Part shown: piece by piece, positions 2,795 through 61,550 of the stretch
How positions within the stretch are numbered: position 1 is the first letter of the stretch
How the letters are laid out: every line of letters begins with the position of its first letter
Assembly (NCBI RefSeq): GCF_051903065.1
Contig: NZ_CP178438.1
DNA: 64,000 bases
Source of the DNA: Escherichia coli
GTDB taxonomy: Bacteria > Pseudomonadota > Gammaproteobacteria > Enterobacterales > Enterobacteriaceae
Direction: 5' to 3' (one strand)
The notes under the pieces: generated by a model
The model's input: the letters and a program-made list of their open reading frames with translations, nothing else
Database searches by the model: none
Told to the model about the DNA's origin: nothing
Made by a program: the position numbers and the translations under genes

Positions 2795-2796
2795 CG

Positions 2797-4610: not shown

Positions 4611-4614
4611 AGAA

Positions 4615-7487: not shown

Positions 7488-7900
7488 TAGCGTTGATGGT
7501 TGTCCAGCAAAATGTCAAATTCAAACACTCCCCTGGTTTCGCTGACATCGACCGTAGCCACAATATGAAAACGCAGTTCCACAGGGGCGTATTCATCCGG
7601 TGCAGCAGCCGTAACAACAACATCGGTAATACGAGGTTCGTAATGTAAAATGCACTGGCTAATGGACTTACGGATTTCTCGTCTGAAATCGCTGGAGGCC
7701 AGCGATTCATCATTTAAATCAGTAATCCCCAGCTCTGGTGAGCCATAACAACTGCCGGAGCGGGTATTCAGGACCTGTTGCAGGTTACGTCTGATGGAAC
7801 GTATCAGTGCTTCTTTTGGATTCTGGTATGAAGGCGGGTTGGCCGCCTCACGGATACGTTCAAAAAGACTGCTGGTTGGCCCTGAATCCCGTCTTTGCAT
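7475..7900 (-). CDS. tssE: T6SS baseplate protein TssE (gp25-like)
   Basis: 141-aa ORF between tssC and tssF; size and position fit gp25-like TssE. Confidence 0.85.
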   Translation of the reverse strand: MQRRDSGPTSSLFERIREAANPPSYQNPKEALIRSIRRNLQQVLNTRSGSCYGSPELGITDLNDESLASSDFRREIRKSISQCILHYEPRITDVVVTAAAPDEYAPVELRFHIVATVDVSETRGVFEFDILLDNHQRYCVE

Positions 7901-7904
7901 CTGA

Positions 7905-9389: not shown

Positions 9390-9411
9390 ACTGAAAATCC
9401 TTCTGTGAAAA

Positions 9412-9915
9412 TTATTTCTGAACGGCGATACCCAGTTCTTGGATCAGCTGCTCGCGGCTGTCTTCGTTTTCCAGTAGCGCCTGAAGTTGTGCGCGGAAGG
9501 CCGGAATATTGCCTAGTGGAGACTTAAGTGCGACCAGAGCTTCACGCAATTCGAGAAGACGTTTTATTTCTGGTACCTGGCTGGCAATATGGTCCGGAGA
9601 AAGGTCATCCATAGATTTGACTTTCAGGTTGACGTACATTTGCTCATTGGGAGCGTCACTGAGTTCAGCCGGAACAACAAACTCCCGTTCAATGTCAGCT
9701 TCTGAAATGACTGCGTTGAGGTTATAGCGGTTGATAGCAATGGCAGTTCGCTCGTCCAACGGCGTGTTATCTGGTTTCCCTTTCAGATTGCCGGTGATCA
9801 ATAAATTCAGCGGCAATTCGATATCAGCAGCCACCCCATCAACTTTTGGTGTATACCGAACGCTGATTCTTTCTTTCGGCGCGACACTGCCGCCATTGTT
9901 GTTCATTTTGCTCAT
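9412..9915 (-). CDS. tssB: T6SS contractile sheath small subunit TssB
   Basis: 167 aa, VipA/TssB-like (RISVRYTPKVDGVAADIELPLNLLITGNL...). Confidence 0.9.
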   Translation of the reverse strand: MSKMNNNGGSVAPKERISVRYTPKVDGVAADIELPLNLLITGNLKGKPDNTPLDERTAIAINRYNLNAVISEADIEREFVVPAELSDAPNEQMYVNLKVKSMDDLSPDHIASQVPEIKRLLELREALVALKSPLGNIPAFRAQLQALLENEDSREQLIQELGIAVQK

Positions 9916-10493
9916 AAAAATGTTCCCGTTCAGGCCATGAGCACAGCATTTTCGTACTGCATAAAAATACCGAAGATACCGTTTCAGTGGCAGTTAGATA
10001 ATGTAACCTTCCTTCTGTTGTGATCAGTATTCTACTCATGAAATAAAATATTAAAAGAACTATTTATATTTTAGAAAGAGATGTATTCTTCCTTGCTAAT
10101 ATATTATAGTGAAATAAATTTTGGTATTTATAGACTTGGTGAATATGATTTTACGGTCAATAAAATACCATAATATATTGATTTATATGCATTTATTAAA
10201 TTGATTAATAAGTTTTATGTATGGTTTTATCAATTAATTAATTGCTGGCAATACATCATAAGGAATTCCTTTAAGGAATGTCTTAATTGCGTGCTGGAAC
10301 GATGGCGGAGTAAGTGTCGTAATAATTTGTTTTTGACGCGGCTGTGGATTTTTATGGGGGGGGAAGATACGTTATGGATAATTGTGCTGTTGAAGTTGAT
10401 ATATTTTTAGCTTATGTGACCGTGTTCTGAAATTGACTAAAAATATATTTAAACACCATAAAAGAGTTTTTCAGTAGGTGCTAATTACGTGTG

Positions 10494-10502
10494 CCTGTAA
10501 CT
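10494..10502. repeat. 9-bp target-site duplication CCTGTAACT (left copy) of the IS903 insertion
   Basis: Identical 9-mer directly abuts both IS ends (10494-10502 and 11560-11568). Confidence 0.85.
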
Positions 10503-11559
10503 GGCTTTGTTGAATAAATCGAACTTTTGCTGAGTTGAAGGATCAGATCACGTATCTTCCCGACAACGCAGACCGTTCCGTGGCAAAGCAAAAGTTCAAA
10601 ATCACCAACTGGCCCACCTACAATAAAGCCCTCATCAACCGTGGCTCCATAACTTTCTGGCTGGATGATGAAGCTATTCAGGCCTGGTATGAGTCAGCAA
10701 CACCTTCTTCACGAGGCAGACCTCAGCGCTATTCTGACCTTGCCATCACGACTGTGCTGGTCATTAAACGCGTATTCAGGCTGACCCTGCGCGCTGCGCA
10801 GGGCTTTATTGATTCCATTTTTTCTCTGATGAACGTTCCGCTACGCTGCCCGGATTACAGCTGTGTCAGCAGGCGGGCAAAGTCGGTTAATGTCAGTTTC
10901 AAAACGCCCACCCGGGGTGAAATCGCACACCTGGTAATTGATTCCACCGGGCTGAAGGTCTTCGGTGAAGGCGAGTGGAAAGTCAAAAAGCATGGCCAGG
11001 AACGCCGCCGTATCTGGCGTAAGCTGCATCTCGCCGTTGACAGTAAAACACATGAAATCATCTGCGCTGACCTGTCGCTGAACAACGTTACGGACTCAGA
11101 GGCCTTCCCCGGGTTAATCCGGCAAACCCACCGGAAAATCAGGTCAGCCGCCGCCGATGGCGCTTACGATACCCGGCTATGTCACGATGAACTGCGGCGT
11201 AAGAAAATCAGCGCGCTTATCCCTCCCCGAAAAGGTGCGGGTTACTGGCCCGGTGAATATGCAGACCGTAACCGTGCAGTGGCTAATCAGCGAATGACCG
11301 GGAGTAATGCGCGGTGGAAATGGACAACAGATTACAACCGTCGCTCGATAGCGGAAACGGCGATGTACCGGGTAAAACAGCTGTTCGGGGGTTCACTGAC
11401 ACTGCGTGACTACGATGGTCAGGTTGCAGAGGCTATGGCCCTGGTACGAGCGCTGAACAAAATGACGAAAGCAGGTATGCCTGAAAGCGTGCGTATTGCC
11501 TGAAAACACAACCCGCTACGGGGGAGACTTACCCGAAATCTGATTTATTCAACAAAGCC
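10503..11559 (+). mobile_element. IS903-type insertion sequence (IS5 family), about 1057 bp
   Basis: Terminal inverted repeats GGCTTTGTTGAATAAATC at 10503-10520 and its reverse complement at 11542-11559; internal transposase ORF; flanked by a 9-bp direct repeat. Confidence 0.9.
10535..11503 (+). CDS. IS903-group transposase
   Basis: 322-aa ORF (TTG start in the track; true start may be slightly internal); IS5/IS903-type transposase sequence. Confidence 0.85.
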   Translation: MKDQITYLPDNADRSVAKQKFKITNWPTYNKALINRGSITFWLDDEAIQAWYESATPSSRGRPQRYSDLAITTVLVIKRVFRLTLRAAQGFIDSIFSLMNVPLRCPDYSCVSRRAKSVNVSFKTPTRGEIAHLVIDSTGLKVFGEGEWKVKKHGQERRRIWRKLHLAVDSKTHEIICADLSLNNVTDSEAFPGLIRQTHRKIRSAAADGAYDTRLCHDELRRKKISALIPPRKGAGYWPGEYADRNRAVANQRMTGSNARWKWTTDYNRRSIAETAMYRVKQLFGGSLTLRDYDGQVAEAMALVRALNKMTKAGMPESVRIA

Positions 11560-11568
11560 CCTGTAACT
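11560..11568. repeat. 9-bp target-site duplication CCTGTAACT (right copy)
   Basis: See left copy. Confidence 0.85.
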
Positions 11569-11684
11569 CGAATAAAGAAAAGGGTGTGGTTCCTGATGTG
11601 AGCCGCATCACACTCTAACCCGTCGGGGATTAACGACGGGTTGTTCGTAAAACAGCAGTTGATAATTTCACAAGGAGTTCATAA

Positions 11685-12203
11685 ATTCCAACCCCATGTT
11701 ACATTTCAATTACAGGTCAGACCCAGGGGAACATCACTGCCGGTGCTTTCACCGCAGATTCTGTCGGCAATATCTACGTGCAGGGACACGAAGATGAAAT
11801 GCTGGTGCAGGAGTTTCTGCATAACGTTACTGTTCCAACCGATCCACAGTCTGGTCAACCTTCCGGGCAGCGCGCGCACAAACCGTTCATTTTCACCGTG
11901 GCGCTGAACAAAGCCGTTCCGCTGCTGTACAACGCGCTGGCCTCCGGTGAAATGCTGCCGAAAGTGGAGCTGCACTGGTGGCGTACTTCAGTTGAAGGCA
12001 AGCAGGAGCACTACTTCACCACACGTCTTACTGACGCGACGATTGTGGACATGAACCTGCACATGCCGCACTGCCAGGACCCTGCACAGCGTGAGTTTAC
12101 GCAATTGCTCGCAGTATCACTGGCATACCGTAAGGTTGAGTGGGAGCACATCAAATCCGGTACTTCTGGTGCCGATGACTGGCGTGCACCGCTGGAAGCA
12201 TAA
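11685..12203 (+). CDS. hcp: T6SS tube protein Hcp, apparent non-ATG (ATT) start
   Basis: Frame-0 translation IPTPCYISITGQTQGNITAGAFTADSVGNIYVQGHEDEML... follows a TAA stop at 11682-11684; AGGAG at 11673-11677 is 7 nt upstream of ATT 11685. The track called only the GTG at 11778. Confidence 0.75.
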   Translation: MPTPCYISITGQTQGNITAGAFTADSVGNIYVQGHEDEMLVQEFLHNVTVPTDPQSGQPSGQRAHKPFIFTVALNKAVPLLYNALASGEMLPKVELHWWRTSVEGKQEHYFTTRLTDATIVDMNLHMPHCQDPAQREFTQLLAVSLAYRKVEWEHIKSGTSGADDWRAPLEA

Positions 12204-12215
12204 ATCTGAGTCAAC

Positions 12216-12247
12216 AACATCCTGCCTTCGTGCAGGATGTTGTTTTT
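12216..12247 (+). terminator. Rho-independent terminator-like hairpin after hcp
   Basis: AACATCCTGC-cttcg-GCAGGATGTT followed by a T-run. Confidence 0.6.
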
Positions 12248-12423
12248 GTACGTGTAAAAAATGAGTGTCAGTAAGGAGTTACGCTTACATGAGGGAGATG
12301 GCGGATGCCGGAAACCCGGGCGGTAGCGTACCTGAAAATGTAAAGATGAGTGTAACGCTGCACTGGCACCCTTTGCTGCATGGTGAGAATCATTTGGTCC
12401 GTGAATAAATCAGGGAGGTCATT

Positions 12424-14823
12424 ATGTCCTTAAAAGGTCTGCGCTTTACGCTGGAGATTGACGGCCAGGAGCCGGACACCTTTGCAGTGGTGAATTTCAG
12501 GTTAATCCAGAACCAGTCTTATCCGTTTGTGATGAGTGTGGATGTTGCCAGCGACTCTTTTATGCAGACGGCGGAGATGCTGCTGGAGAAGAAGGCGACG
12601 CTGGCCATCTGGCAGGGCGCGGTGGCGCAGCGTTATGTCACCGGCGTGGTGGCGGGTTTTGGTATGCAGGAGAACAATGGCTGGCAGATGCGTTATCACC
12701 TGCGTATTGAGCCGCCGTTATGGCGGTGCGGGCTGCGGCAGAACTTCCGTATCTTCCAGCAGCAGGATATCCGGACGATATCGGCCACGTTACTGAACGA
12801 GAACGGCGTCACGGAGTGGACGCCGCTGTTTTATGAGGACCATCCGGCGCGGGAGTTCTGTGTGCAGTACGGGGAGTCGGACCTGGCGTTTCTGGCGCGG
12901 CTGTGGGCGGAGGAGGGAATTTTCTTCTTTGAGCGGTTTGCGGCGGACAGTCCGGAGCAGAAGCTGACGCTGTGCGACGATGTGGCGGGGCTGTCACAGG
13001 CGGGAGAGCTTCCGTTTAACCCGGACACATCGGCAGGAGCGGAGACAGAGTGTGTCAGTATGTTCCGTTATGAGGCGTATGTCCGCCCGTCGTCGGTGCA
13101 GAGCCAGGATTACACGTTTAAGGTGCCGGACTGGCCGGGGATGTATGAGCAGCAGGGTGAGAACCTGAACGGACAGCTGGCGCAGTATGAGATATTTGAT
13201 TATCCGGGAAGGTTCAAGGATGAACAGCACGGTAAGGATTTCACGCTGTACCAGATGGAGAGCCTGCGCAGTGATGCGGAAAAGGCCACAGGGCAGAGTA
13301 ATTCACCGAAGCTGTGGCCGGGAACGCGGTTTACGCTGACGGGGCATCCGCAGAAGATGCTGAACCGTGAATGGCAGGTGGTACAGAGCATTCTGTCAGG
13401 GGACCAGCCGCAGGCGCTGCACGGCAGCCAGGGGAGAGGAACCACGCTGGGAAATCAGTTAGAGGTGATACCGGCGGACCGGACGTGGCGTCCACGGCTG
13501 CAAAGCAAACCGAAGGTGGACGGGCCGCAGAGTGCCATTGTGACCGGGCCGAAGGGTGAGGAGATATTCTGCGACGAACATGGCCGGGTACGGGTGAAGT
13601 TCCACTGGGACCGTTATCACGGGATGACGGAGGCGAGTTCATGCTGGGTGCGGGTATCACAGGCGTGGGCGGGGCCGGGGTTTGGTAACCTGGCGATACC
13701 GCGGGTGGGTCAGGAGGTGATTGTTGACTTCCTGAACGGAGACCCGGACCAGCCGCTGGTCATGGGCCGGACGTACCATGAGGACAACCGTTCGCCGGGG
13801 AGCCTGCCGGGGACGAAGACGCAGATGACGATACGGTCGAAGACCTATAAAGGAAGCGGATTTAACGAGTTGCGCTTTGAGGACGCCACCAGTAATGAGC
13901 AGGTGTATATCCATGCGCAGAAGAACATGGATACGGAGGTGCTCAACGACCGGACAACGGATGTGAAACATGACCATACGGAAACCATCGGTAACGACCA
14001 GAAGATAACGGTGGTGAAGGGTCAGACGGTTCAGGTCGGTACAAAAAAAGAGGGGGGCCACGACCAGAGTATCACGGTGGCGAATGACCGGTGCATCACG
14101 GTACGTAATGACCAGACGCTGCAGGTGACGAATGACCGGACGGTGAGCGTGAGTCACGATGACGGTCTGTACGTAAAAAATGACCGAAAGGTGACGGTGA
14201 AAGGGAAGCAGGAGCATAAGACGACGGGTAACCACATCAGCCTGGTGGAGGGGAAGCACAGCCTGGAGGTGAAGGGGGACCTGGCGGAGAAGGTGAGTGG
14301 CGCGCTGGGGATAAAAGTGGACGGGGATATCGTGCTGGAGAGCAGCAGCCGGATAAGCCTGAAGGTGGGTGGCTCGTTTATCGTCATTCAGCCGGGCGGA
14401 GTGGATATTGCCGGGCCGAAGATAAACCTGAACGGTGGGGGCAGTGCGGGGACACCGGTGGGGACGATGCAGCCGGCGGTGCTGGAGGCTCCGGAGGATG
14501 AGAGCAGTGATGATGGCAGTGATGACTCCGGAGAGGATAGTGGCAATCCCGCAGGGAGTGACGGAGGAGGTGATGGCGGTGACGATGAAGATGATCCTGA
14601 AAAATATACCCTCCAGTTCCATTTTACGGACGATGACGGGATACCGTATTCAGAGACGCAGTATATTGCCTTTTTTGAGGATGGCACACAGACGCGTGGT
14701 GAAACAGACAGAGAGGGATATACAGAAATATTTTATACAGATACAGCACAGGAAATTAAAGTCCAATTGTTATTTTCGGATGCTTTTTATATTGAGCCGG
14801 AGGGGCATTATGGCAGGGAATAA
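12424..14823 (+). CDS. vgrG: T6SS spike protein VgrG with acidic linker and C-terminal extension domain
   Basis: 799 aa; gp27/gp5-like body, repetitive beta-helix (VKNDRKVTV...), acidic Asp/Glu/Ser-rich linker, then a ~65-aa C-terminal domain. Confidence 0.9.
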   Translation: MSLKGLRFTLEIDGQEPDTFAVVNFRLIQNQSYPFVMSVDVASDSFMQTAEMLLEKKATLAIWQGAVAQRYVTGVVAGFGMQENNGWQMRYHLRIEPPLWRCGLRQNFRIFQQQDIRTISATLLNENGVTEWTPLFYEDHPAREFCVQYGESDLAFLARLWAEEGIFFFERFAADSPEQKLTLCDDVAGLSQAGELPFNPDTSAGAETECVSMFRYEAYVRPSSVQSQDYTFKVPDWPGMYEQQGENLNGQLAQYEIFDYPGRFKDEQHGKDFTLYQMESLRSDAEKATGQSNSPKLWPGTRFTLTGHPQKMLNREWQVVQSILSGDQPQALHGSQGRGTTLGNQLEVIPADRTWRPRLQSKPKVDGPQSAIVTGPKGEEIFCDEHGRVRVKFHWDRYHGMTEASSCWVRVSQAWAGPGFGNLAIPRVGQEVIVDFLNGDPDQPLVMGRTYHEDNRSPGSLPGTKTQMTIRSKTYKGSGFNELRFEDATSNEQVYIHAQKNMDTEVLNDRTTDVKHDHTETIGNDQKITVVKGQTVQVGTKKEGGHDQSITVANDRCITVRNDQTLQVTNDRTVSVSHDDGLYVKNDRKVTVKGKQEHKTTGNHISLVEGKHSLEVKGDLAEKVSGALGIKVDGDIVLESSSRISLKVGGSFIVIQPGGVDIAGPKINLNGGGSAGTPVGTMQPAVLEAPEDESSDDGSDDSGEDSGNPAGSDGGGDGGDDEDDPEKYTLQFHFTDDDGIPYSETQYIAFFEDGTQTRGETDREGYTEIFYTDTAQEIKVQLLFSDAFYIEPEGHYGRE

Positions 14824-15613
14824 TAATACTAGTGGGACTTCACAACCCGAGTCGCAAGTATGTGTAGTACCGCAAAAAATTACAAATAAATTTAAAATAA
14901 TGATGAGTAAGGCTTGTAAAGCACAGAAAATGGTTTTATTGAAAAGAGCAGATGATATTATGTCATGGGAGGGGGAACAACAACGAGATTTTATTAAAGT
15001 TTTTGGCCTTAAAGGCGAGGACATTATAAAAATCAGAAAAGTTGGGGAAGATACTGGGAAACGAATGCAAGCGAGACTATTCATAATGGATGGCATCAGA
15101 CGAATAATGACGATTGCAAATGGTTTGACGATCGAAAGCTATAAAGATTATACGAACTGCAATGAATTTGCTGCTTTTATTAGTCCACATCTTGATCCTC
15201 CTTACATTGTAAATATCGGAGCGCATTTTGAATACAGACATGGTATAAAACAGTCGGTTACAGGTAGAGACTCTCATGTAAGTACACTTTGCCATGAAAT
15301 GTCCCATATATTTTGGTATTGGGGTGACAATCAAAAAGGTGGTATGTGGACTCAGGATTATACGGGTATTAATAAGTTCGCAACAAGTAATAAGGATGAA
15401 GTTAGCTATGAGAAACATGTTTCAGTGGCTAATGATCTGGTTACATTGCGTAAAGATCAGTTATTTGAGAATGCATATAATGTTGAAAGATATTTTTATA
15501 TAAAATTAAATGATGAAGATATTGAAGCTCAAGATGAGAATATGTTAGCAAAAAAAGTAGAGGATAAAATAAAAGAGATAGAAAAATGTTTTGATGAGTT
15601 GACGGGGAAATAA
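14810..15613 (+). CDS. Putative T6SS cargo effector, HExxH zinc-metallopeptidase-like
   Basis: ATG at 14810 overlaps the vgrG stop; AT-rich; HEMSH motif encoded at 15293-15307. The track's longer 14435 start lies inside vgrG and is rejected. Confidence 0.55.
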   Translation: MAGNNNTSGTSQPESQVCVVPQKITNKFKIMMSKACKAQKMVLLKRADDIMSWEGEQQRDFIKVFGLKGEDIIKIRKVGEDTGKRMQARLFIMDGIRRIMTIANGLTIESYKDYTNCNEFAAFISPHLDPPYIVNIGAHFEYRHGIKQSVTGRDSHVSTLCHEMSHIFWYWGDNQKGGMWTQDYTGINKFATSNKDEVSYEKHVSVANDLVTLRKDQLFENAYNVERYFYIKLNDEDIEAQDENMLAKKVEDKIKEIEKCFDELTGK

Positions 15614-15614
15614 G

Positions 15615-16364
15615 ATGAAGAGGTTGGCTTTCTATAATCTAAATTATGTTGTACTGATGGTTTTTTTTCTTTGTTTTTTGCCATTATCTATTGCAATTGC
15701 AATAGATAATGAGAATCTTTTTGTAAAAAAATACAGATTCGGTTTTGAACGAAGAAGTGACAATGGGAAACCAATTATTTATCTTAGCCATAATTTAGCG
15801 CCAGAGGAAAATATAAGTAATGAATTAACAAATGATGTTGTTGTTAAATTGGTGGTTAAGCCACATGCTGAAAATATTTTAGCTACTATAACTTTTTATA
15901 ACAGTAGTACTAAATCGTATTTTCTCCCCAGAATATATTATCCAAAGAACTTCCAAAAAGGAAATGGAGATGTATTTGATGCTTTGTGTGATGACGAATT
16001 CTTGATTACATCAGGAAATATTAGCTTAGACTATCTAGGAGGCTTTTGTCCCTTTGAGCTTGATTTGAATTTGAGCCGATGGGTGGAAATTACGGCAGGT
16101 AAAAAAATATCTTTTGATGTAAAATTGAATGATATGCATTCATTTCTCCCCAGTTTAAATAATTATCATATAAAAACATTAAACTACAAACTTGTTAGGA
16201 GAAAATGGTTTGTATTAAAATCAATTAATGAAACATTCCTCTCTATTTTGATGAAAAGATACTCATGTAATGAATATGATTTTAGAGCTATATCATTTAG
16301 TGGAGAGGGATGTGATAATTATGAATTTGATAAAAATACGTTTTTTTTGTTAATCAAATATTAG
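15615..16364 (+). CDS. Signal-peptide protein, candidate cognate immunity protein
   Basis: Start 1 nt after the effector stop; N-terminal hydrophobic signal (VVLMVFFLCFLPLSIAIA); AT-rich. Confidence 0.5.
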   Translation: MKRLAFYNLNYVVLMVFFLCFLPLSIAIAIDNENLFVKKYRFGFERRSDNGKPIIYLSHNLAPEENISNELTNDVVVKLVVKPHAENILATITFYNSSTKSYFLPRIYYPKNFQKGNGDVFDALCDDEFLITSGNISLDYLGGFCPFELDLNLSRWVEITAGKKISFDVKLNDMHSFLPSLNNYHIKTLNYKLVRRKWFVLKSINETFLSILMKRYSCNEYDFRAISFSGEGCDNYEFDKNTFFLLIKY

Positions 16365-16600
16365 ATAAAGATGATGAGCAACATTCTGTTCATATTAGGT
16401 CTAATGAATTTTCCATCAATATCGATGGAAGCTTGGTAAAGCAACCTTATTGATTAAAATGTATCGCAGGTTTTATTTTCTGTAATGCTGGTGCATGTGC
16501 GTAAATATTTCTTAAGAGCCGGAAACACCTCTTCCGCCTTTATCGACGATAAACCTACCGCCAGAACCGGTGATGCCATTGACTGCGGTGGCGTGGTTAA

Positions 16601-16941
16601 AGGTGGAGGGCGATGTGGTGCTGGAGAGCAGCAGCCGGATAAGCCTGAAGGTGGGCGGTTCGTTTGTGGTCATCCATTCAGGGGGCGTGGACATCGTCGG
16701 GCCGAAAATCAATCTCAATAGCGGCGGTAGTCCGGGAACGCCGGTGCCGACGCTGCAACCGGCGGTTCTGAAAGCGCTGGCAGATGATAAAAGTTTAGCG
16801 GCTGAGCAAAATGATAGTAATGCATCGTCCGATCAGAATGATAACAACGATGAGGGTGAGGAAGCGCCAGAAAAATCGGTGTGTAAGGAGTGCCTGAAAA
16901 GGGCGCAGGAAGCCGCCGCCGCTTTTGCGCCTCGTGGATAA
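16601..16941 (+). pseudogene. Orphan vgrG 3' remnant with a different C-terminal tail
   Basis: Nucleotide and protein similarity to vgrG 14310-14470 (VLESSSRISLKVGGSF.V.IQ/HSGGVDI.GPKINLN.GGS.GTPV), then a divergent acidic tail; no vgrG N-terminal body upstream. Confidence 0.7.
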
Positions 16942-16947
16942 GGGAGA

Positions 16948-17718
16948 ATGACGATGATAACAGTATCGCCACGCGCTACCGATCAAGACAAATATATTAT
17001 CTGGCTGAAGCAGGCTGAATCATTCTGTTCTGCCGCTGGTTTGGATTACATAGATGTGCTTGTTGACCAGGCTGGAACCGACCAACCTTTGCAAAATGAG
17101 ATACTTCATCTGTGGCCAGCCATTCACTGGTATGCCCTGTTTGAAGGAACGCCTGAAGCTGAGACGATGGAGTATTCCCCTGTAGTGTTACGCCTGTACT
17201 TTGCGCTCAGTAGCCATCGCAAATTTCTGGCACAACTGATGGCGTCATTTGCTGATACGCCGCGTCTTACTTTGTTGATATCCCCTCTTACATTCGACCT
17301 GCTGGGGCGGCATCTTCAGGTATTGTCACAGGTTCAGTGGGAAGAACAGACCGGATTGCTGCGTTACTATGATAATCGGGTGTTCCCTTTACTGTTCACA
17401 CATGTTTTGACTAACGAGCAGCAGGCGACATTTACTGATATTGCGTTGTTCTGGAGCTGGTTAGACCGTGATGGTGAGATTAACTGGAAATCAGGAAGTT
17501 TTTCACCAGAACGCAGGCTTACTGACAACCCGGAGATGAATCGGGTGGATGATGTACAGGTGGGATTGATGGGCTGTATCTGCGACGCTGAAGTCCTGAT
17601 GAAGGAGAAAGCAGTCAGTGAACTCAGTCAGGAAAGCTATTTTGCCCACTGTCTTGATATTGCTTTCAGAGCCAATGACGCGAAATATTTCGGAGCTTTG
17701 CGGGACTTCGAAGGATAA
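16948..17718 (+). CDS. Putative T6SS effector adaptor (DUF4123-like), low confidence on family
   Basis: 256-aa ORF between the vgrG remnant and the immunity/effector pair; position and size fit adaptor/chaperone genes. Start may be the third codon (16954). Confidence 0.45.
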   Translation: MTMITVSPRATDQDKYIIWLKQAESFCSAAGLDYIDVLVDQAGTDQPLQNEILHLWPAIHWYALFEGTPEAETMEYSPVVLRLYFALSSHRKFLAQLMASFADTPRLTLLISPLTFDLLGRHLQVLSQVQWEEQTGLLRYYDNRVFPLLFTHVLTNEQQATFTDIALFWSWLDRDGEINWKSGSFSPERRLTDNPEMNRVDDVQVGLMGCICDAEVLMKEKAVSELSQESYFAHCLDIAFRANDAKYFGALRDFEG

Positions 17719-18061
17719 TATTGTGGTGATGTACGGGGAGATTTATCTGTTTAAAAGTCCGTAGCTGTTAATATCAAGAGATAATCGTGAAATAAACGGA
17801 AAATCAAGCTCGACATGTAATGGTAGTATCCATCATGTTGCATTTGTGTTCGATCGTAATGTCAGTTCACTTGGCTGCAATATATTTTGCGTAATATCAT
17901 CAATGCTCTGTCGATATTCCAATGTGTGACAATCGAAAGATATGCATTTTATTTGCTTCTTTGTCAAAACTTTATTGTCGTAGAAACAATACCCATCAAT
18001 TAAAATCTCTCAAAGTAAAAGAACCAGCAACATGTCCAGCAAAATAAGGAAAAGTATCAGT

Positions 18062-18586
18062 ATGAGAGCGATTTTCAAATGTTATTCTCTAATGATTTTA
18101 TTTGCAGTATCAGGCTGTTCAATGGCAAAAAATAGCGGTGATTACACTGCTGTGGATATTAATGGGATAAATCATACGGATAAGGATATAAATTATATAC
18201 ACATCAATGGTTACGGCGGACCAAATATTGGTCCATTCGGAGACGGTGGAGGATATTGTTGCGTTATGCTGCCAGATAAGTGGCATTCTGGATTAAAAGC
18301 CCAGGTTGAATGGGAAATTACCCCAAATACAGTACCTCCGCCACCACTCTATAAGGATTGGGATAAATATCAGGCCTGGGAGAAAAAACTAAAAGAAAGT
18401 TACATTCAACATACCGCAATTGTTGATATCCCGGAATACGATGCTGAGCTTTGTGGCCTGACCGTTCATTTTCTAACGTGTAATCAGATTAAAGTGACAA
18501 CCGTCTGCCAGAAGTATGGCACACCGAATTATCCCATCAAAGAACCCCGCGAGATGAAGGAACCAGCAACATGTCCAGCGAAATAA
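18062..18586 (+). CDS. Lipoprotein, Tli-like candidate immunity for the adjacent lipase
   Basis: MRAIFKCYSLMILFAVSGC lipoprotein signal; AAGGA ~12 nt upstream. The track start at 18032 lies inside a duplicated 3'-end repeat and is rejected. Confidence 0.6.
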   Translation: MRAIFKCYSLMILFAVSGCSMAKNSGDYTAVDINGINHTDKDINYIHINGYGGPNIGPFGDGGGYCCVMLPDKWHSGLKAQVEWEITPNTVPPPPLYKDWDKYQAWEKKLKESYIQHTAIVDIPEYDAELCGLTVHFLTCNQIKVTTVCQKYGTPNYPIKEPREMKEPATCPAK

Positions 18587-18602
18587 GTGGTCTGGCTTTT
18601 CC

Positions 18603-20663
18603 GTGTTATGCCCCCCAGCGTTTCCTGAAAATGGGCGATTAATATTATCTGAAGCGCAGGTAAACGCGAACTACCTAAAACAAATCAATAAAACAGAAGA
18701 GCACAAAACCAACTGTAGTAAACAGGCTGGATTTAGAATTGGCTTTACGTGTAATCAAAGTCTGCATATTAGTCTGTTTTTTGATGGTACAAATAATAAT
18801 GAATATAATGACACTCCTGGACACCCAATCAATATTGCCAAACTGTTTCATACGACCTATCAGAACGCAGAAGAACAGGGATATTTTAACTACTATATAC
18901 CGGGTGTAGGCACACCATTTCCCAAGATAGGTGAAATGGATTACAGCAACAGCGGGCTGGAGTTCGCTACTGGTGGTGAAGATCGAATTAATTGGGCATT
19001 ATTACGCCTCGTGGATGCCCTGAGCTATTCCATTGACCCTTCCCATAAGCGACTGGATGATAATGTGGCAAAAGAGCACATTCCTCTTATGCGCGCTCCC
19101 TGGCCTATGACTGGTGAAGTGAATCGTCGCAATGTGATTAACCCCTACCTGGAAAAATTACAGGGACTGTTAGAGCAAGCCAGTCCGCGCCTGCTAAACG
19201 TAAAGCTGTTTATCTACGGATTTTCCCGTGGCGCAGCGGAAGCACGAACTTTTGTTAACTGGTTGACTCAGTTAGCTTGCCCGCAGGAGCAACAGGTGAT
19301 GCTGGCCGGGTTAGCTGTCAGTATTGAGTTTTTGGGGCTGCTGGATACCGTAGCTTCTGTGGGGGCGGCGCATGTTTTACCGGGCGCTGCCGGTCATATG
19401 GGATGGGCCGATAGTACTCAGCAACTCCCTGATGAGAGGCAGTTTCCCGGCCTGATTAAATGCTGCCGCCACTTCGTTGCCGCGCATGAGCAGCGGCTGT
19501 GCTTTCCGCTGGATTCAATCCGTCGTCCAGACGGAAATTATCCTTTAAATGCAGAGGAAATTATCTATCCGGGGATGCACTCTGATGTCGGTGGTGGCTA
19601 TCCCGTTCGCGATCAGGGGAAGTCCTGTGGTGACTCAGGCGAAATTCTTTCTCAGATAGCACTGCATGATATGTATCTTGCTGCATTTGATTCAGGAGCA
19701 CCACTTGCTGTTTATTCTAAATTTGTTACTCCATTAATAAAAGGTGTGTCGCCTCTGCGAATTATGAGTCCTTCTAGCGTAAAGGAATTTACGATTGCTA
19801 ATTCATTAACAAAACGCTTCAACATCTGGCGACAAACGCTGCTGAACACCACCTTGCAGGGTACAGAAGAAATGATTGATACGAGGGAAGGTTATCACTC
19901 CTATCAACTTGCCCAGGTTCTTGAAAGCGCAATTAGCGATCAGATCGGCTGGATCACCGCCTGGCGTATCGGTCGCTATGCGAATAACAGCCTTCTTGTG
20001 CAACCTTTTTATATTAAGGCGCCACAGCTGGATAAAGATGGACTTGATAAAGAGGCTAAAGCGCGTAAAGAACAAATGGAAAATATTGAAAAAGAGCGGG
20101 CGAACAAGCAGAAAGGGAATGGCACACTTGATGAAAGTAATCAGGGCATTCCTATCCTTGACCCAACCAATGCTCAGTATCAGTTGCGAGAGGCAGCCCG
20201 AGAATTTCAGAGCGATTATAAAGGATGGACGCGCGATATTAACGGCAGCGTCATGGAGAAAGCCATTCAGATTCTTGTGGATGTCATTCCTAAATATCCG
20301 GTGTATCTGATTAATGGCGATGATGAAGCAAAAGAATATCAGCAAATTAAGGCTATGGGAGACGGACTCTATCCACAATTTTTTATTGATTCACTGGGAA
20401 CGGGAACGCGTACTCAGCCCTGCGCTGAATTACTGGCTCTCTATGATGACCAGGTTCACGACTCCCGCGCCTGGTTTATGCAAAGTTCGCTGGGTGGACG
20501 CGAACCCTGGGGCGGTTATTTTCGCTACCGCATGATTTACTTCGGTGATGAGGCTAATAAAGAGCTGAAGCTAATCTCTGCAGATGGCAAAGTTGTTGGT
20601 GATCAGCCCACATCCAACCGGGTCATTTATTGGATGGAATCGAAAACGGTGAGCCGAGGTTAA
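18603..20663 (+). CDS. tle1: T6SS phospholipase effector, Tle1-like (DUF2235, GxSxG)
   Basis: 686 aa; LFFDGTNNN N-terminal core motif and GFSRGA (GxSxG) at 19217-19234. Start codon uncertain: GTG 18603, no in-frame ATG upstream. Confidence 0.7.
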   Translation: MLCPPAFPENGRLILSEAQVNANYLKQINKTEEHKTNCSKQAGFRIGFTCNQSLHISLFFDGTNNNEYNDTPGHPINIAKLFHTTYQNAEEQGYFNYYIPGVGTPFPKIGEMDYSNSGLEFATGGEDRINWALLRLVDALSYSIDPSHKRLDDNVAKEHIPLMRAPWPMTGEVNRRNVINPYLEKLQGLLEQASPRLLNVKLFIYGFSRGAAEARTFVNWLTQLACPQEQQVMLAGLAVSIEFLGLLDTVASVGAAHVLPGAAGHMGWADSTQQLPDERQFPGLIKCCRHFVAAHEQRLCFPLDSIRRPDGNYPLNAEEIIYPGMHSDVGGGYPVRDQGKSCGDSGEILSQIALHDMYLAAFDSGAPLAVYSKFVTPLIKGVSPLRIMSPSSVKEFTIANSLTKRFNIWRQTLLNTTLQGTEEMIDTREGYHSYQLAQVLESAISDQIGWITAWRIGRYANNSLLVQPFYIKAPQLDKDGLDKEAKARKEQMENIEKERANKQKGNGTLDESNQGIPILDPTNAQYQLREAAREFQSDYKGWTRDINGSVMEKAIQILVDVIPKYPVYLINGDDEAKEYQQIKAMGDGLYPQFFIDSLGTGTRTQPCAELLALYDDQVHDSRAWFMQSSLGGREPWGGYFRYRMIYFGDEANKELKLISADGKVVGDQPTSNRVIYWMESKTVSRG

Positions 20664-20734
20664 GTTCATAAGATTGAGGGGGGGGTGACCGGGAAAATGT
20701 AGACATGTAGTGCCTAATCACCCCAGTTCAAACC

Positions 20735-20762
20735 CATCCGCATCCCGCCATGCCGGAAACTT
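20735..20762. repeat. 28-bp copy of the yafV 3' end (direct repeat with 23283-23310)
   Basis: CATCCGCATCCCGCCATGCCGGAAACTT is identical at both sites. Confidence 0.8.
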
Positions 20763-20920
20763 CACACTGTACTCCCAGGGAAAAATCACGTAATGCTGCT
20801 TTTTTTGTACTAAATAATTCGCATTTTATGTTCAATAATTGAGGTGTTCCTTATTACCTAAAGCTGTTTTTCATTGCTTATACATGATCAAATACTCATT
20901 GCATAATTAAGGGGGGCAAA

Positions 20921-21684
20921 ATGGAACTTAAAAAATTGATGGAACATATTTCTATTATCCCCGATTACAGGCAAGCCTGGAAAGTGGAACATAAATTGCC
21001 AGATATTCTATCTGTTAACTATTTGCGCCGTTATTTCTGGTGCATAATGCTGGGAAGATATAGAGGATTTGGGGAAACACATCCCGATTTTTTGAAGTGA
21101 TATGGTGATTTTGAAAATGGTATTCCTGTTCACGATATCATTGCCAGAGTTGTATCCTGTATCAGTCCTGAAAAATTTCATGAGTGCTTTATTAACTGGA
21201 TGCGTGACTGTCATTCTTCAGATGATAAAGACGTCATTACAATTGATGGAAAAACGCTCCGGCACTCTTATGATAAAAGTCGTCACAAGGGAGCAATTTA
21301 TGTCATTAAAATCCGTCTTCATATTGTTTGCATGTCTCTGATGAATTTATTGATTTTACGTTTGAATGGAAAGGGCTGAAGAAATTATGCATGGCAGCCT
21401 CATTTCGCTCAATAATAGCAGAACAAAAGAAAAATCCCGAAATGACGGTCAGATATTATAGCATTTCTGCTGATTTAACCGCAGAGAAGTTCGCCACAGC
21501 GAACCGAAATCACTGGCAAGTGGAGAATAAATTGCACTGGCATCTGGACGTGGTAATGAATAAAGACGACTTCAAAATAAGAAGAGGAAATGCAGCAGAA
21601 TTATTTTCAGGGATACCGAAGATCGCTATTAATATTTTAACGAAAGATAAGATAATCAAGGCAGGGGCAAGATGTAAGATGTGA
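20921..21684 (+). pseudogene. ISAs1-family (H-repeat-associated) transposase pseudogene with internal deletion and stops
   Basis: [26 protein letters not shown]... N-terminus, in-frame stop, and C-terminal part (...[11 protein letters not shown]...[11 protein letters not shown]...) in three broken frames. Confidence 0.75.
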
Positions 21685-56137: not shown

Positions 56138-56154
56138 TTTGGTGGAGAAAGTTG

Positions 56155-56502
56155 ATGCGTGATATGTATGAAGTATTGGACCGCTGGGGAGCATGGGCTG
56201 CAGCAGAAAATAGTGGTGTGGACTGGCAGCCGATAGCGGCTGGTTTCAAGGGACTTTTACCACACGGTAAAAAGTCACGTCTCCAGTGTGATGATGATGA
56301 AGGCATCATGATAGATAGTTGTGTGGCTAGGTTGCGTAAATATAAGCCGGAAGAGTATGAGCTGATAATTGCTCACTTTGTTATCGGTATCTCATTACGC
56401 ACTATTGCGAAGAAGAGAAAATGCTCTGATGGGACTATAAGAAAAAAGTTGCAAGCTGCATTGGGATTTATTGATGCAGTTATATATATAATACATGGGT
56501 AA
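56155..56502 (+). CDS. Late-gene antiterminator Q (QuuD-like)
   Basis: MRDMYEVLDRWGAWAAAENSGVDWQPIAAGFKGL... resembles DLP12 QuuD; GGAG RBS before ATG 56155. Confidence 0.8.
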   Translation: MRDMYEVLDRWGAWAAAENSGVDWQPIAAGFKGLLPHGKKSRLQCDDDEGIMIDSCVARLRKYKPEEYELIIAHFVIGISLRTIAKKRKCSDGTIRKKLQAALGFIDAVIYIIHG

Positions 56503-56526
56503 TTTATTAGACGGCCATATTGGCCG

Positions 56527-57714
56527 TCAGCTAAATAAATATGTAATAGCATAAGGCGTAAGTAAAAAGTAGAACCTAAATGTAAGATATAAGCCACATA
56601 AAACTATAATTCCTAATGAGGCAAAAACAACTTTCTGAACAAGCAATCTTGTGGTTAAACTATCAAATGTATCCTTTATATCTTCGTAAATAGCCTTGAA
56701 GTTATATTCTGCTTGTTGTTTTTTATGATTTAACTCATCATTTATTGCTGTTAAAGTTTGCCATTGATTAAATAGAACAAATAGAATCATAATAGTGAAG
56801 AACAATGCACCCAACACTACAGCTGTATTTATTAATGCTTGACTATCCCAACCATTAGCCTGCTTCATTTGAGTCGCAACGATAATTGTTGCGACGGGGA
56901 TACCTAATATCTGATTTTGTATGTCACTGAATACTTTATGTATTTTTCCCATCTCTTCTATTTTGGCTACTCGTAACTGATCCAGTATTTTCTCGTAAGA
57001 AAAACCAGAAACGAATACTTTGTATCCTTTTTGATAACTTTCATAAAGTTGTCCTAAATCCCTTAACATGAAGGAAAAAGAGGTTTCTTTAGTTTTAGAT
57101 TCACATGATGATTTTATGCTACTTGCTAAAATAGTAAGTTTTTGATCTTTATGCGTATCTTCTGCAAAGTTTGCGATCAAATTATGAATCAGATCTCCAT
57201 TAACATTCATAAGATCATCGCTAGAATAATTTACTGGAATTTTTAGTACGTTGGATTCGACGAATACCAATTCAAAATTTGTTTCATCTAAATAAGCAGA
57301 ACAATCTTTGAATAAAGTAATTAAGCTCAAAACATCTCTGTACTTGGATATAATAGCAGGCGACTTTTTATCCCTGTTGTGATAATTAAGTTCGATTATA
57401 AAGAAGTTACTGGCTTCCTTTATCCTATTTTTAGGATTTTTTAAATACTCATTAAAAGAGAAATGTAGCTGCCCCAATCGTAATTTGGGGGGGGTTATAT
57501 GTAAGGTTATAGTTTGGCCTAACTCAATGTTGCCAGATTCAAGGGTGATGCCAAAATCATGGGGATTCTCTGTGATATCGTTGATGATGTCACAGAGCTC
57601 CTCGTTTGAAAGAATGAGTGATGCTTCAGATAGGGTACCTGCAAATGTAGCGGCCTTGTAAATAGTCACTAAGTCTTTGAAGGTTCTCTGATTGTTACTG
57701 CTCATCCTCTTCAC
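56527..57714 (-). CDS. Hypothetical protein with two C-terminal transmembrane helices (cassette gene 2)
   Basis: 395 aa; hydrophobic segments ALINTAVVLGALFFTIMILFVLF and VVFASLGIIVLCGLYLTFRFYFLL; 20-bp overlap with the upstream gene; AT-rich. Confidence 0.6.
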   Translation of the reverse strand: MKRMSSNNQRTFKDLVTIYKAATFAGTLSEASLILSNEELCDIINDITENPHDFGITLESGNIELGQTITLHITPPKLRLGQLHFSFNEYLKNPKNRIKEASNFFIIELNYHNRDKKSPAIISKYRDVLSLITLFKDCSAYLDETNFELVFVESNVLKIPVNYSSDDLMNVNGDLIHNLIANFAEDTHKDQKLTILASSIKSSCESKTKETSFSFMLRDLGQLYESYQKGYKVFVSGFSYEKILDQLRVAKIEEMGKIHKVFSDIQNQILGIPVATIIVATQMKQANGWDSQALINTAVVLGALFFTIMILFVLFNQWQTLTAINDELNHKKQQAEYNFKAIYEDIKDTFDSLTTRLLVQKVVFASLGIIVLCGLYLTFRFYFLLTPYAITYLFS

Positions 57715-58729
57715 CTAATTCTGATAAAATCTCTGATCTTAGCGTATCCGGAATCTCGGTAAGTATCAATTTATCGTTTTCTGAATCATAAAGAACGCTG
57801 CCATCATGCAAGGCCGCACGCTCGAATTTCAGAGACCAATGTTTGGACTTTCCTTTGAAACTAACAAGCCCACGTATAACGTTGCCATCAGGCACGAACC
57901 CATCAGAGAACTCCAGATCGTCATTGGTTAACTTTTCAACTAACAACTCAGGAGCAGTTGGCCATATCTCGTTTGCAAAAACTTGAGTGTCGAAAGCTTC
58001 ACCAGAACGATTTAAATTTTTTAATTTTTCATGAGCCTTATTTAGGAACTCTTCACGTGCCTCTGGTTCAAAACCTCTTTCAGTAGCAAATTCTAAAAGT
58101 GCATTCCGTAATTTTGTTGTTTCTTGTTTGGCAATTAGAATATCGTTACAACCTAAAAACTTTTTGAAATAACCTGCTACTGAATTTTGCCCCTTTAGAA
58201 AGCTAATATATCTCTCTTTGCCATTCTGGCGCCCAGTTAAGTCAATTCGTCCCGCTACTCGAAGTTTAGCAATGTCTAGATATTCACTTTCTTGAATTTC
58301 AAAATCGTGGACTGAAGAGCCAACTGCTGATGTTAGGATTGCAACCATCAAATAATGATTTCCATTTACCTCATTATGGGCAATTATTACATAACCACCA
58401 GTAGACATTGATTCATCATCGGCTCTGGCTTTTAAATGATTGATCATTCGGATACTAGTATCATAAAAACTATGTGTTTTATTTACGAAATAATCATCAA
58501 CGATATTACCCATAGGGTAACTATCGCGGTCATCTTCAAATTTACCATATCCTTTACCTGCTCTCCCAGAGTACCTTTCAGTAAGTGCGTTAGAGAGGTC
58601 TTTTGATGCTTGCTGAACAGGTTTTTCTGAAGGACAAGGAATAATGGTGGCTAACCCCTGTTGTTCCTTGTTCATAATGTGAACAATAAACTTATGAGTG
58701 ATATTAGTGGGGGTCGCTGATGCAGTCAT
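57695..58729 (-). CDS. NdpA/YejK-like nucleoid-associated protein homologue (cassette gene 1)
   Basis: 344 aa; blocks GGYVIIAH...YLMVAILTS, LDIAKLRVAGRIDLTGRQNGKERYISFLKGQN...FKKFLG and a C-terminal LILTEIPDTLRSEI mirror YejK (GGFVLFCH, LDLDKMQLASRIDLTAWQTNSDRYLSFLKGKNG...FLHFLG, LTIKGTPPNLRDQL). Confidence 0.7.
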   Translation of the reverse strand: MTASATPTNITHKFIVHIMNKEQQGLATIIPCPSEKPVQQASKDLSNALTERYSGRAGKGYGKFEDDRDSYPMGNIVDDYFVNKTHSFYDTSIRMINHLKARADDESMSTGGYVIIAHNEVNGNHYLMVAILTSAVGSSVHDFEIQESEYLDIAKLRVAGRIDLTGRQNGKERYISFLKGQNSVAGYFKKFLGCNDILIAKQETTKLRNALLEFATERGFEPEAREEFLNKAHEKLKNLNRSGEAFDTQVFANEIWPTAPELLVEKLTNDDLEFSDGFVPDGNVIRGLVSFKGKSKHWSLKFERAALHDGSVLYDSENDKLILTEIPDTLRSEILSELGEEDEQ

Positions 58730-58845
58730 AACAACATCCTTTTAATGGTTTTGAACAATTGGTGTTGATAATACTTCAAAAAATACTAATGCGTACGCAA
58801 AAAATACAGTACTCTGTTAAGAGTGGTTACTTCGCCACACAGCTT

Positions 58846-58868
58846 AAACCCGCCGTCGAGCGGGTTTT
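58846..58868 (+). terminator. Short GC hairpin plus T-run (tR'-like terminator candidate upstream of the lysis genes)
   Basis: AAACCCG-ccgtcgag-CGGGTTTT; possible promoter TTGATA-17-TAATGC about 60 bp upstream. Confidence 0.35.
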
Positions 58869-59019
58869 GTCGTTTCTGGGCTTTGGTATTCGTTGGGCTT
58901 GGTCTATCTAGCTCTTATCCATTGGCTCGGCTTCTTTTACGTTTCCGCTTCTGATTTGCGGTTCGTGGTACTCCCTCAATTTGCACCTCTTGTATCGGCG
59001 AGGTGAGAGATAACTACAA

Positions 59020-60344: not shown

Positions 60345-60538
60345 AGCAGTAAAGTGGAAAGATCGCAGCAAGAAGTGCCTGTTCAGAATTAATGAAGATG
60401 CCTCAAATACCTAAAATAGCGAGTAGCCAGATGCACGTCAACTACGAGTGTGTGGCCAGCATAACGTTGTATAAACTAAGTGATAGCAGAGTTCAATATA
60501 CGTATACTGAGAGAACTATTTCTATTTGAGAACTGAAA

Positions 60539-61132
60539 ATGACGGACTATACTTTTTTTTACTGGATAGAGATGCTTCTTAAAGAAGGCAATGTTTTATT
60601 TATTGTTCTTGCTTGTTTGATTGTCTTTTTTACTTTAAAAAAAGAAATAATAATGGTTTTAGGTCGTCTTAATACAGTTAAGCTAGGTGACTATGAGATT
60701 AAATTTAAAAAAGAAATGTTTGAAATAGAATCTAAAAGTATAGAGGTTATTAAAAATTTACCTGGAACAAATCCTGTCCTGCCGACACAACTCATTGAGA
60801 ATTTCAATATTTTTGAGAGTCTTGCTAGTACTCAGCCTAATGTTGCTGTACTTTCAGCTTGGCGCGAATTGGAGTTAACCGCTATAACGCTTGCATCTAA
60901 AAAGGGGGTTGAGATCAACGGGACATCTTTAGGGCGGGCTTCAGGTATCGCTGCCTTGAAAAATGTCCAATCTGCAAACAAAATTTCTAGTGACATTGTT
61001 AAGCTTTATGAAAAAACAGGAGAGTCTATTAAGCCTATATCCCAAGGAAAGCTCTTATGTACTCAGGAAGATGCTTTGGCATTCTGTAAGAATGCAAAAA
61101 GACTTAGCAATTATTTAACATCCATATTTTAG
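60539..61132 (+). CDS. Hypothetical protein with N-terminal TM helix (AT-rich moron after the lysis cassette)
   Basis: 197-aa ORF, about 30% GC against a ~50% GC phage background. Confidence 0.5.
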   Translation: MTDYTFFYWIEMLLKEGNVLFIVLACLIVFFTLKKEIIMVLGRLNTVKLGDYEIKFKKEMFEIESKSIEVIKNLPGTNPVLPTQLIENFNIFESLASTQPNVAVLSAWRELELTAITLASKKGVEINGTSLGRASGIAALKNVQSANKISSDIVKLYEKTGESIKPISQGKLLCTQEDALAFCKNAKRLSNYLTSIF

Positions 61133-61208
61133 TATGTATCCATAGAGCATCCATTATTATTGGAGTAGTCGTTACAGCAGGCATTCACTGAGTGCCTGCT
61201 GCTGAACT

Positions 61209-61421
61209 CTAATAGCAAGATGGAGAATCTGCATTAAATTTTTGAGAGAGATTACTTATTTCATTCACTCCCTTATGATTAAGTAATAGCCTAATATTTT
61301 CTGGAGCCTTGAATATAAATGGGCCTTTTAGATCCTCGATGATTCCTCCTGCGACGCAGATCAAATGCTTGAAATCAACATCTTCAATTGTGGGCTTGGA
61401 GTCCAGATTATCGCTTGTCAT
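61209..61421 (-). CDS. Hypothetical small protein
   Basis: 70-aa ORF, AT-rich, convergent with the 60539 gene. Confidence 0.3.
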   Translation of the reverse strand: MTSDNLDSKPTIEDVDFKHLICVAGGIIEDLKGPFIFKAPENIRLLLNHKGVNEISNLSQKFNADSPSCY

Positions 61422-61550
61422 TTAAAAACATCCTTTCTTGCCATTAGCAGCATTGAGCATGTTATGGAATCTGTAATTTAGGATGCTGGTACTACCAGTA
61501 CTTTTTTTGTTTCATTTTGTGAATCACCTCATTTACGAGGGGAGCCTATC

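Follow-up and report, generated by a model that had tools for sequence, protein, structure and literature searches.

The question raised by this locus is what two genes on the minus strand are doing between the antiterminator gene Q and the lysis genes of a lambda-like prophage. The locus is part of a stretch of 64,000 nucleotides (nt) from Escherichia coli (contig NZ_CP178438.1), which is called the window in the following. An earlier note had placed two AT-rich open reading frames (ORFs) of the minus strand in this position, gene 1 at 57695-58729 and gene 2 at 56527-57714. The coordinates and the base composition are both correct, with a GC content of 0.30-0.42 over 56400-58800 versus 0.50-0.59 in the flanks. 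In the identical region of E. coli 23CRST027, RefSeq gives the order Q, hypothetical protein WP_000097747.1 (gene 2), nucleoid-associated protein WP_048228897.1 (gene 1) and holin. This annotation was applied to the prophage part of the window only; differences in insertion sequences (IS) offset its coordinates upstream. Our answer is that the two genes probably constitute a prophage-carried abortive-infection defense system of the class of DS-1 and type II PANGU. We assign a probability of about 0.75 to this reading.

Relationship of the two proteins to DS-1

Gene 1 (57695-58729, minus strand; RefSeq WP_048228897.1) encodes a nucleoid-associated protein (NAP) of the YejK/NA37 family with 344 amino acids (aa). 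The view that it is a homolog of NdpA/YejK was borne out by a Pfam profile search, in which the protein matched NA37 (PF04245) over its full length (model positions 1-324 of 325, E 1.7e-68). Further matches were phrog_3767, which is labeled 'nucleoid associated protein' (E 4.6e-80), and PDB 9BE2, a solved structure of YejK (E 1.7e-19). Against the YejK equivalog model of NCBIfam (NF001557) it scored 165 bits, which is below the cutoff of 341. By this score gene 1 is a paralog and not the housekeeping YejK gene.

Gene 2 (56527-57705, minus strand; RefSeq WP_000097747.1) encodes a membrane protein of 392 aa. The protein matched phrog_5023, a family with no assigned function (E 4e-80); it gave no match to a Pfam domain, and a sequence search of the PDB found no solved relative. 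Its architecture can be read from the hydropathy profile and from an AlphaFold model, which was built with 27 homologs and has a mean predicted local distance difference test score (pLDDT) of 80.8. The N-terminal part, residues 1-216 (57058-57705), is a soluble alpha/beta domain with a net acidic charge. In the model this domain is confidently folded (residues 1-215), and it bears only a weak, degenerate resemblance to LAGLIDADG/WhiA-like proteins. A juxtamembrane block follows at residues 227-281 (56863-57027); it is made of a long amphipathic helix and a short hydrophobic helix, which the model places at 217-266 and 268-279 respectively. The C-terminus contains two transmembrane (TM) segments, residues 288-318 (56752-56844) and 350-384 (56554-56658), with Kyte-Doolittle maxima of 2.72 (19-residue window) and 2.26. 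Both are carried by a long helical hairpin with model helices at 288-335 and 337-382. The soluble N-terminal region and the pair of C-terminal TM helices had been predicted before. The model adds a third hydrophobic helix, short and highly conserved, which lies at 268-279 ahead of the TM pair.

An alignment of the gene 2 family shows that conservation is unevenly distributed over the protein. The block 227-281 is its most conserved part and contains invariant as well as near-invariant columns (consensus GY..F.S.FSY.K...Q...AK.EE..KIHK.F.DIQNQ.LGIPVAT..VATQ.K). The N-terminal domain is far more variable. Its net charge is negative in 22/22 members of the family, with a mean of -8.5.

Both proteins are related to a system with measured anti-phage activity. 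The DefensePredictor study (bioRxiv January 2025, Science 2026; PMC13092281) validated DS-1, which combines a YejK-domain protein with a membrane protein of ~400 aa. The first gene of DS-1 encodes WP_000355468.1 (DS-1A), a NA37 protein of 391 aa with an N-terminal zinc ribbon, and the second WP_000150292.1 (DS-1B) with 404 aa. When expressed from its native promoter in E. coli MG1655, DS-1 lowered the plating of phage Bas1 by 7.6 logs, with no plaques recorded; the drop was 2.7 logs for Bas26, 1.7 for Bas3, 1.7 for T3 and 1.0 for T5 (PMC13092281). NCBIfam release 20 contains two equivalog models that are derived from DS-1, namely DS1_1_antiphage (NF053868, 'nucleoid-associated anti-phage protein') and DS1_2_antiphage (NF053869). 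Each of the window proteins matches the model of its own DS-1 counterpart. Gene 1 scored 56.4 bits against DS1_1_antiphage (E 2.4e-15, cutoff 330) and gene 2 70.3 bits against DS1_2_antiphage (E 1.6e-19, cutoff 315). Since the E-values are significant and the bit scores are still far below the DS-1 cutoffs, the window proteins can be regarded as relatives of DS-1 and not as equivalogs. The domain searches that had been suggested in the earlier note had a divided outcome: the expected PF04245 domain was found in gene 1, whereas gene 2 is without a Pfam domain and has the DS1_2_antiphage match below cutoff.

Direct comparisons of the proteins gave the same picture. In pairwise BLASTP searches gene 1 was 25% identical to DS-1A over 197 aa (E 3e-10) and gene 2 28% identical to DS-1B over 104 aa (E 4e-7). 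With hhalign, the profile of the gene 2 family aligned to DS-1B in 267 co-linear columns with a probability of 94.7% (E 6e-8), and the block that aligned best was again residues 227-281.

With regard to novelty, the earlier note knew of no described defense system with a protein of the NdpA family at its core. This has been overtaken by the publication of DS-1 (PMC13092281) and PANGU (10.64898/2026.04.06.716658). The proposal of a novel module has to be dropped as well; the exact protein encoded by gene 2 is already listed, as a prediction only, in Table S10 of the DefensePredictor study under the label 'Predicted novel defense gene' (log-odds 11.97). The cassette is a divergent relative within an already described class and not a new kind of system. 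The more general idea of an autonomous opposite-strand module for defense or abortive infection, with a sensor and a membrane partner, is well supported by the homology to DS-1, by the layout described for type II PANGU and by the strict pairing of the genes.

Pairing, distribution and the cargo slot

The cassette is rare at the DNA level. It was present in 15 of the 5426 complete E. coli genomes, always beside Q, and in no deposited phage genome. Because deposited phage genomes gave no match at this level, a search at the protein level was needed for phage copies. Relatives of gene 2 accounted for 369 matches in a 90%-clustered database; in a 50%-clustered library 1161 representatives reached E <= 1e-3, and 323 of them reached E <= 1e-30. 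The family is spread across Proteobacteria and has a uniform length of ~390-410 aa.

Whether the two genes co-occur, a check that had been proposed earlier, could be answered clearly. Of 41 IMG/VR loci with a relative of gene 2, 40 have a NA37 gene as the direct upstream neighbor in the same orientation. The other one is truncated by the contig end, hence the pair is kept in 40/40 assessable viral loci. The same arrangement, with the NA37 gene immediately upstream, occurs in 4/4 divergent genomic loci, which come from Xenorhabdus, Gallionella, Jeongeupia and Klebsiella. The NA37 partner in Xenorhabdus budapestensis (locus L002, 4211-6017) is present in two pieces of 247 aa and 97 aa that are ~770 nt apart, next to an intact gene for the membrane protein; this copy is probably decaying.

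The two proteins have diverged together. Over 28 loci the identities of gene 1 and gene 2 to the window copies co-vary with a Pearson coefficient of 0.96, with the higher conservation on the side of gene 1 in 24 of these loci. In comparisons with the diverged lambdoid copies the nonsynonymous divergence (dN) was 0.08-0.33 and the synonymous divergence (dS) was saturated; the ratio dN/dS of gene 1 was 0.04-0.07 where it could be computed. Judged from these substitution patterns, both genes are under purifying selection. Two IMG/VR contigs (L050 and L051) contain very distant pairs of a NAP and a membrane protein, with 22-25% identity to both window proteins. They keep the gene order and have 240-270 nt between the matched regions. 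These pairs may bridge the subfamily of the window and DS-1.

The overlap of the two genes that had been described is real; its length has to be corrected. The RefSeq start of gene 2 is the ATG at 57705, which gives the protein of 392 aa and has an AGGTGA Shine-Dalgarno motif 5 nt upstream. With this start the end of gene 1 and the beginning of gene 2 overlap by 11 nt (57695-57705, minus strand). An overlap of 20 nt, as claimed before, results only from the GTG at 57714, which would give a protein of 395 aa. The same overlap is present in related lambdoid loci, and it implies that translation of the two genes is likely to be coupled.

The insertion site of the cassette has two well defined edges. 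On the left is the gene for the Q-family antiterminator (56152-56502, plus strand; phrog_79, E 1.3e-46; RefSeq 'antiterminator Q family protein'), which is convergent with gene 2. On the right is a conserved segment of the pR' type (58766-58897, plus strand), which has 86-92% identity to intergenic DNA of many lambdoid phages and includes a terminator-like hairpin with a T-tract at 58846-58867. The matching segment of PhiR5_1 starts directly after the stop codon of Q, so that the slot is empty in this case; in phage 434 it lies between the porin gene nmpC, which is on the opposite strand, and the holin gene. This placement in PhiR5_1 and phage 434 identifies 58766-58897 as the leader of the late operon, and the cassette is therefore inserted between Q and this leader. 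Further to the right of the cassette are the genes for a lambda-family holin (TIGR01594, 121 bits) and a lysozyme.

The same slot contains other genes in sibling prophages of E. coli, in which DUF968 and Q are 92-93% identical to those of the window. In E. coli EC20 (L009, 4926-6653) it is filled by opposite-strand genes for proteins of 204 aa, 114 aa and 249 aa, the last one belonging to the TIGR04255 family. E. coli O104:H4 FWSEC0009 (L010, 4910-6371) has opposite-strand genes for hypothetical proteins of 182 aa and 308 aa. Because sibling prophages carry such unrelated minus-strand cassettes, and with nmpC of phage 434 as a further case, the earlier description of the site as a prophage cargo hotspot can be taken as confirmed. 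The cassettes of EC20 and FWSEC0009 are themselves candidates for other defense cargo.

Nineteen lambdoid loci have the pair tail-to-tail with Q, among them loci in which the identity of Q is no higher than 58-62%. More distant copies with 37-43% identity are found in Mu-like prophages, twice directly upstream of lysis genes (L005 and L006). The pair of X. budapestensis adjoins Mu-like tail genes and tail-fibre genes, that of Gallionella is outside any visible prophage and beside toxin-antitoxin genes, and a pair in the Sinorhizobium phage phi2LM21 is located near the end of the genome.

A GC-rich inverted repeat with arms of 8 bp, GACGGCCA-TAT-TGGCCGTC, can be read directly from the sequence at 56510-56528. 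Q and gene 2 converge here, and the repeat lies where 24 nt separate their stop codons. It has a T-run on neither side, and for lack of a following T-run the terminator scan passed it over. A function as bidirectional terminator or as RNA-stability element is possible.

Other features of the window are outside the cassette. A second island of low GC content (0.32-0.40), flanked by the spanin genes on one side and the HNH/terminase genes on the other, extends over 60400-61450 and probably represents a further slot for cargo. It contains an ORF at 60539-61132 (plus strand) for a protein of 197 aa with a hydrophobic N-terminal stretch (phrog_30030, function not assigned; RefSeq hypothetical protein WP_104773370.1), and an ORF of 70 aa at 61209-61421 (minus strand), which is unannotated and matches phrog_22590 (function not assigned). 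Neither of the two had a match in PADLOC or NCBIfam. According to the annotation of strain 23CRST027, which is 99.99% identical and has small IS1 differences to the window, the window starts in a type VI secretion cluster (~1551-21000) with genes for a Tle1 phospholipase effector and Tli1 immunity. The same annotation places the integration of the prophage at ~44900, beside a tRNA-Thr gene downstream of proA.

Proposed mechanism and alternative explanations

Experiments on mechanism were reported for the PANGU systems (bioRxiv 10.64898/2026.04.06.716658, April 2026). Type II PANGU, which is found in E. coli, consists of the YejK-like NAP Pag2A and the protein Pag2B; the latter starts with an acidic domain, described as 'DNA-mimicking', and ends with a TM domain. 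The system works only with both genes, of which neither is toxic by itself. Infection is abortive, with growth arrest at high multiplicity of infection, and T4 escapes through mutations in denA (EndoII). A Pag2A-GFP fusion departs from the nucleoid upon infection, and Pag2A binds to the N-terminal domain of Pag2B with a KD of 19 nM. In type I PANGU the NAP binds long DNA only, and a NAP that is deficient in DNA binding turns the system toxic (10.64898/2026.04.06.716658).

By analogy with these systems we propose that gene 1 is a DNA-bound sensor, equivalent to PagA and DS-1A, and that gene 2 is the effector, equivalent to Pag2B and DS-1B. The N-terminal domain of gene 2 would serve as the docking surface for gene 1, and the whole subfamily would behave like DS-1 and type II PANGU. 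As long as the lysogen is uninfected, gene 1 would stay bound to the long DNA of the chromosome. Degradation of this chromosome by a superinfecting lytic phage would deprive gene 1 of its DNA and set it free. The free protein would then bind gene 2 at the acidic N-terminal domain, a competitor of DNA for the same binding surface, and this would switch on the C-terminal membrane module. The effector presumably acts on the membrane, and the cell would be depolarized, permeabilized or arrested in growth before phage progeny are formed. Breakdown of host DNA to short fragments is not part of the growth of lambdoid and Mu-like phages, from which we infer that the lysogen would not be triggered by its own prophage.

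A more far-reaching version of this scheme can be formulated, and we consider it doubtful. It holds that the subfamily is a dedicated weapon of phage against phage, in which chromosome-sparing phages keep a 'genome-integrity alarm' at their early/late junction that kills only upon attack by a chromosome-degrading rival; the N-terminal domain of gene 2 would then be a previously unseen DNA-mimic fold.

A number of points weigh against the assignment of the cassette to this class of defense systems. The evidence on the window cassette itself is computational; the assignment is built on homology, pairing and context together with the experiments on relatives. The relationship to DS-1 is remote, with 25-28% identity and scores of 56 bits (cutoff 330) and 70 bits (cutoff 315). 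Type II PANGU (PANGU-Ecu and PANGU-Ec) is likened to the cassette by its described architecture and not by sequence (10.64898/2026.04.06.716658). The N-terminal domain of gene 2 in the window is only mildly acidic with a net charge of -7. A promoter scan and reading by eye revealed no clear sigma-70 promoter upstream of gene 1; for this reason the expression of the cassette in a lysogen is an assumption. On the minus strand ahead of gene 1, TATTAT at 58772-58767 is the only hexamer that resembles a -10 element, and it is without a matching -35 element. Finally, neither gene had a match in PADLOC-DB v2 (2023). This was expected, and the result is uninformative because the database predates the descriptions of DS-1 and PANGU.

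With respect to the same region we note that 58763-58790 on the plus strand contains, by eye only, late-promoter-like hexamers (TTGATA, 16 nt, TAATGC) that overlap the TATTAT element. A promoter of the cassette and the late promoter may overlap here back to back.

Other functions of the pair have to be considered. It is unlikely that the two proteins serve the lytic program of the phage itself, as an accessory for lysis timing or membrane remodeling that responds to the state of the nucleoid or phage DNA. Such a role would fit with the position of the pair at the boundary before the lysis genes, which is seen in lambdoid and Mu-like phages, with the name 'phage-related membrane protein' that UniProt gives to relatives, and with a loose similarity of the C-terminal hairpin of gene 2 to helices of pore-forming or channel proteins, for example ClyA and CorA. 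However, the lambdoid pair precedes the leader of the late operon and is encoded on the other strand, where it would not be expressed by Q-dependent late transcription. The slot is empty or filled with unrelated cargo in close relatives with normal lysis, and copies of the pair occur in other places, such as the genome end of phi2LM21, the tail-fibre genes of Xenorhabdus and the Gallionella locus outside a visible prophage. In addition, cloned DS-1 and PANGU protect cells without any carrier phage. Another possible role is superinfection exclusion, in which gene 2 would block entry or early steps of infection at the membrane, gene 1 would be only a regulator or chaperone, and no cell would die. 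Many exclusion proteins of prophages are membrane proteins, and gene 2 is a membrane protein from prophage cargo; the drop of 7.6 logs without plaques that DS-1 causes with Bas1 is also compatible with a direct block. We nevertheless regard exclusion as improbable. It leaves unexplained why the partner is an obligate, co-evolving and full-length DNA-binding NAP, and type II PANGU is abortive, with escape through a nuclease gene of the phage and not through a gene for a receptor or for injection.

The pair could also be a manipulator of the nucleoid without a role in immunity, an option that was already raised in the earlier note. Gene 1 would then reshape or silence DNA of the host or prophage, and gene 2 would tether this DNA to the membrane. 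The score of gene 1 is indeed higher with the YejK model (165 bits) than with the DS-1A model (56 bits), yet 165 bits is far below the equivalog cutoff of 341 for YejK. The strict coupling to a homolog of a validated defense effector and the score in DefensePredictor also speak against this explanation, and the acidic N-terminal domain of gene 2 is better suited for competition with DNA than for tethering it. Taken together this makes nucleoid manipulation a very improbable function of the pair.

If the cassette is a defense system, as we favor, then immunity by nucleoid proteins of the DS-1/PANGU type extends to a divergent subfamily, whose sequence clusters number several hundred or more. 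Its carriers are mostly temperate phages, lambdoid as well as Mu-like, which have it in a fixed cargo slot beside the lysis genes. The context suggests a rule, according to which chromosome-sparing phages arm their lysogens against chromosome-destroying phages. The phage-borne context is a modest addition to the PANGU preprint, the text of which does not contain the word 'prophage' (10.64898/2026.04.06.716658). The natural diversity of the subfamily is a resource for studies on the activation of the membrane effector, which combines an invariant juxtamembrane block with a variable acidic N-terminal domain co-evolving with the sensor. In practical terms the gain is modest and consists of a candidate that can be cloned and an improved annotation of the 'hypothetical protein' WP_000097747.1.

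Comparison with known systems

The housekeeping protein YejK/NdpA and gene 1 have in common the full-length NA37 fold, including conserved blocks such as FLKG...F(F/K)K.FLG. Unlike YejK, gene 1 is an accessory gene of low GC content, which is borne by a prophage and always paired with a gene for a membrane protein. With the nmpC/lc porin cargo of phage 434 and its relatives the cassette shares the slot and the opposite orientation, whereas gene content and function are unrelated. A parallel in organization is RexAB of phage lambda, a two-gene abortive-infection system of a prophage with a cytoplasmic sensor and a membrane effector, which is expressed independently of the late genes. RexAB and the cassette have no relationship in sequence or fold; RexA senses another signal, and its locus is in the immunity region.

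DS-1 has the same gene order as the cassette, with the NAP first, and its proteins of 391 and 404 aa compare with 344 and 392 aa in the window. The zinc ribbon of DS-1A (CxxC...CxxC, residues 1-40) is absent from gene 1, in which the NA37 domain starts at residue 15 and is preceded by no Cys pairs. Gene 2 has the stronger hydrophobic segments in comparison with DS-1B.

Type I PANGU (Pag1A and the GRel toxSAS protein Pag1B) has a sensor of the same YejK-like class and an effector with an acidic NAP-binding domain. Its proposed trigger, the loss of long DNA after attack by a phage nuclease, is the one that we suggest for the cassette. The effectors are different in that Pag1B is a cytoplasmic alarmone synthetase, whereas gene 2 is a membrane protein without an enzyme domain. 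Type II PANGU and the cassette have a layout in common: both are bicistronic, with the gene for a YejK-like NAP in first position and a partner with a C-terminal TM region. The putative counterpart of the acidic N-terminal domain of Pag2B in gene 2 has a net negative charge and is known here from this charge and from the predicted fold. The cassette, unlike type II PANGU as it has been described, sits in the cargo slot of a lambdoid prophage. The logic that we propose would be common to both, namely a sensor that is held on DNA and an effector that is thereby kept apart from it.

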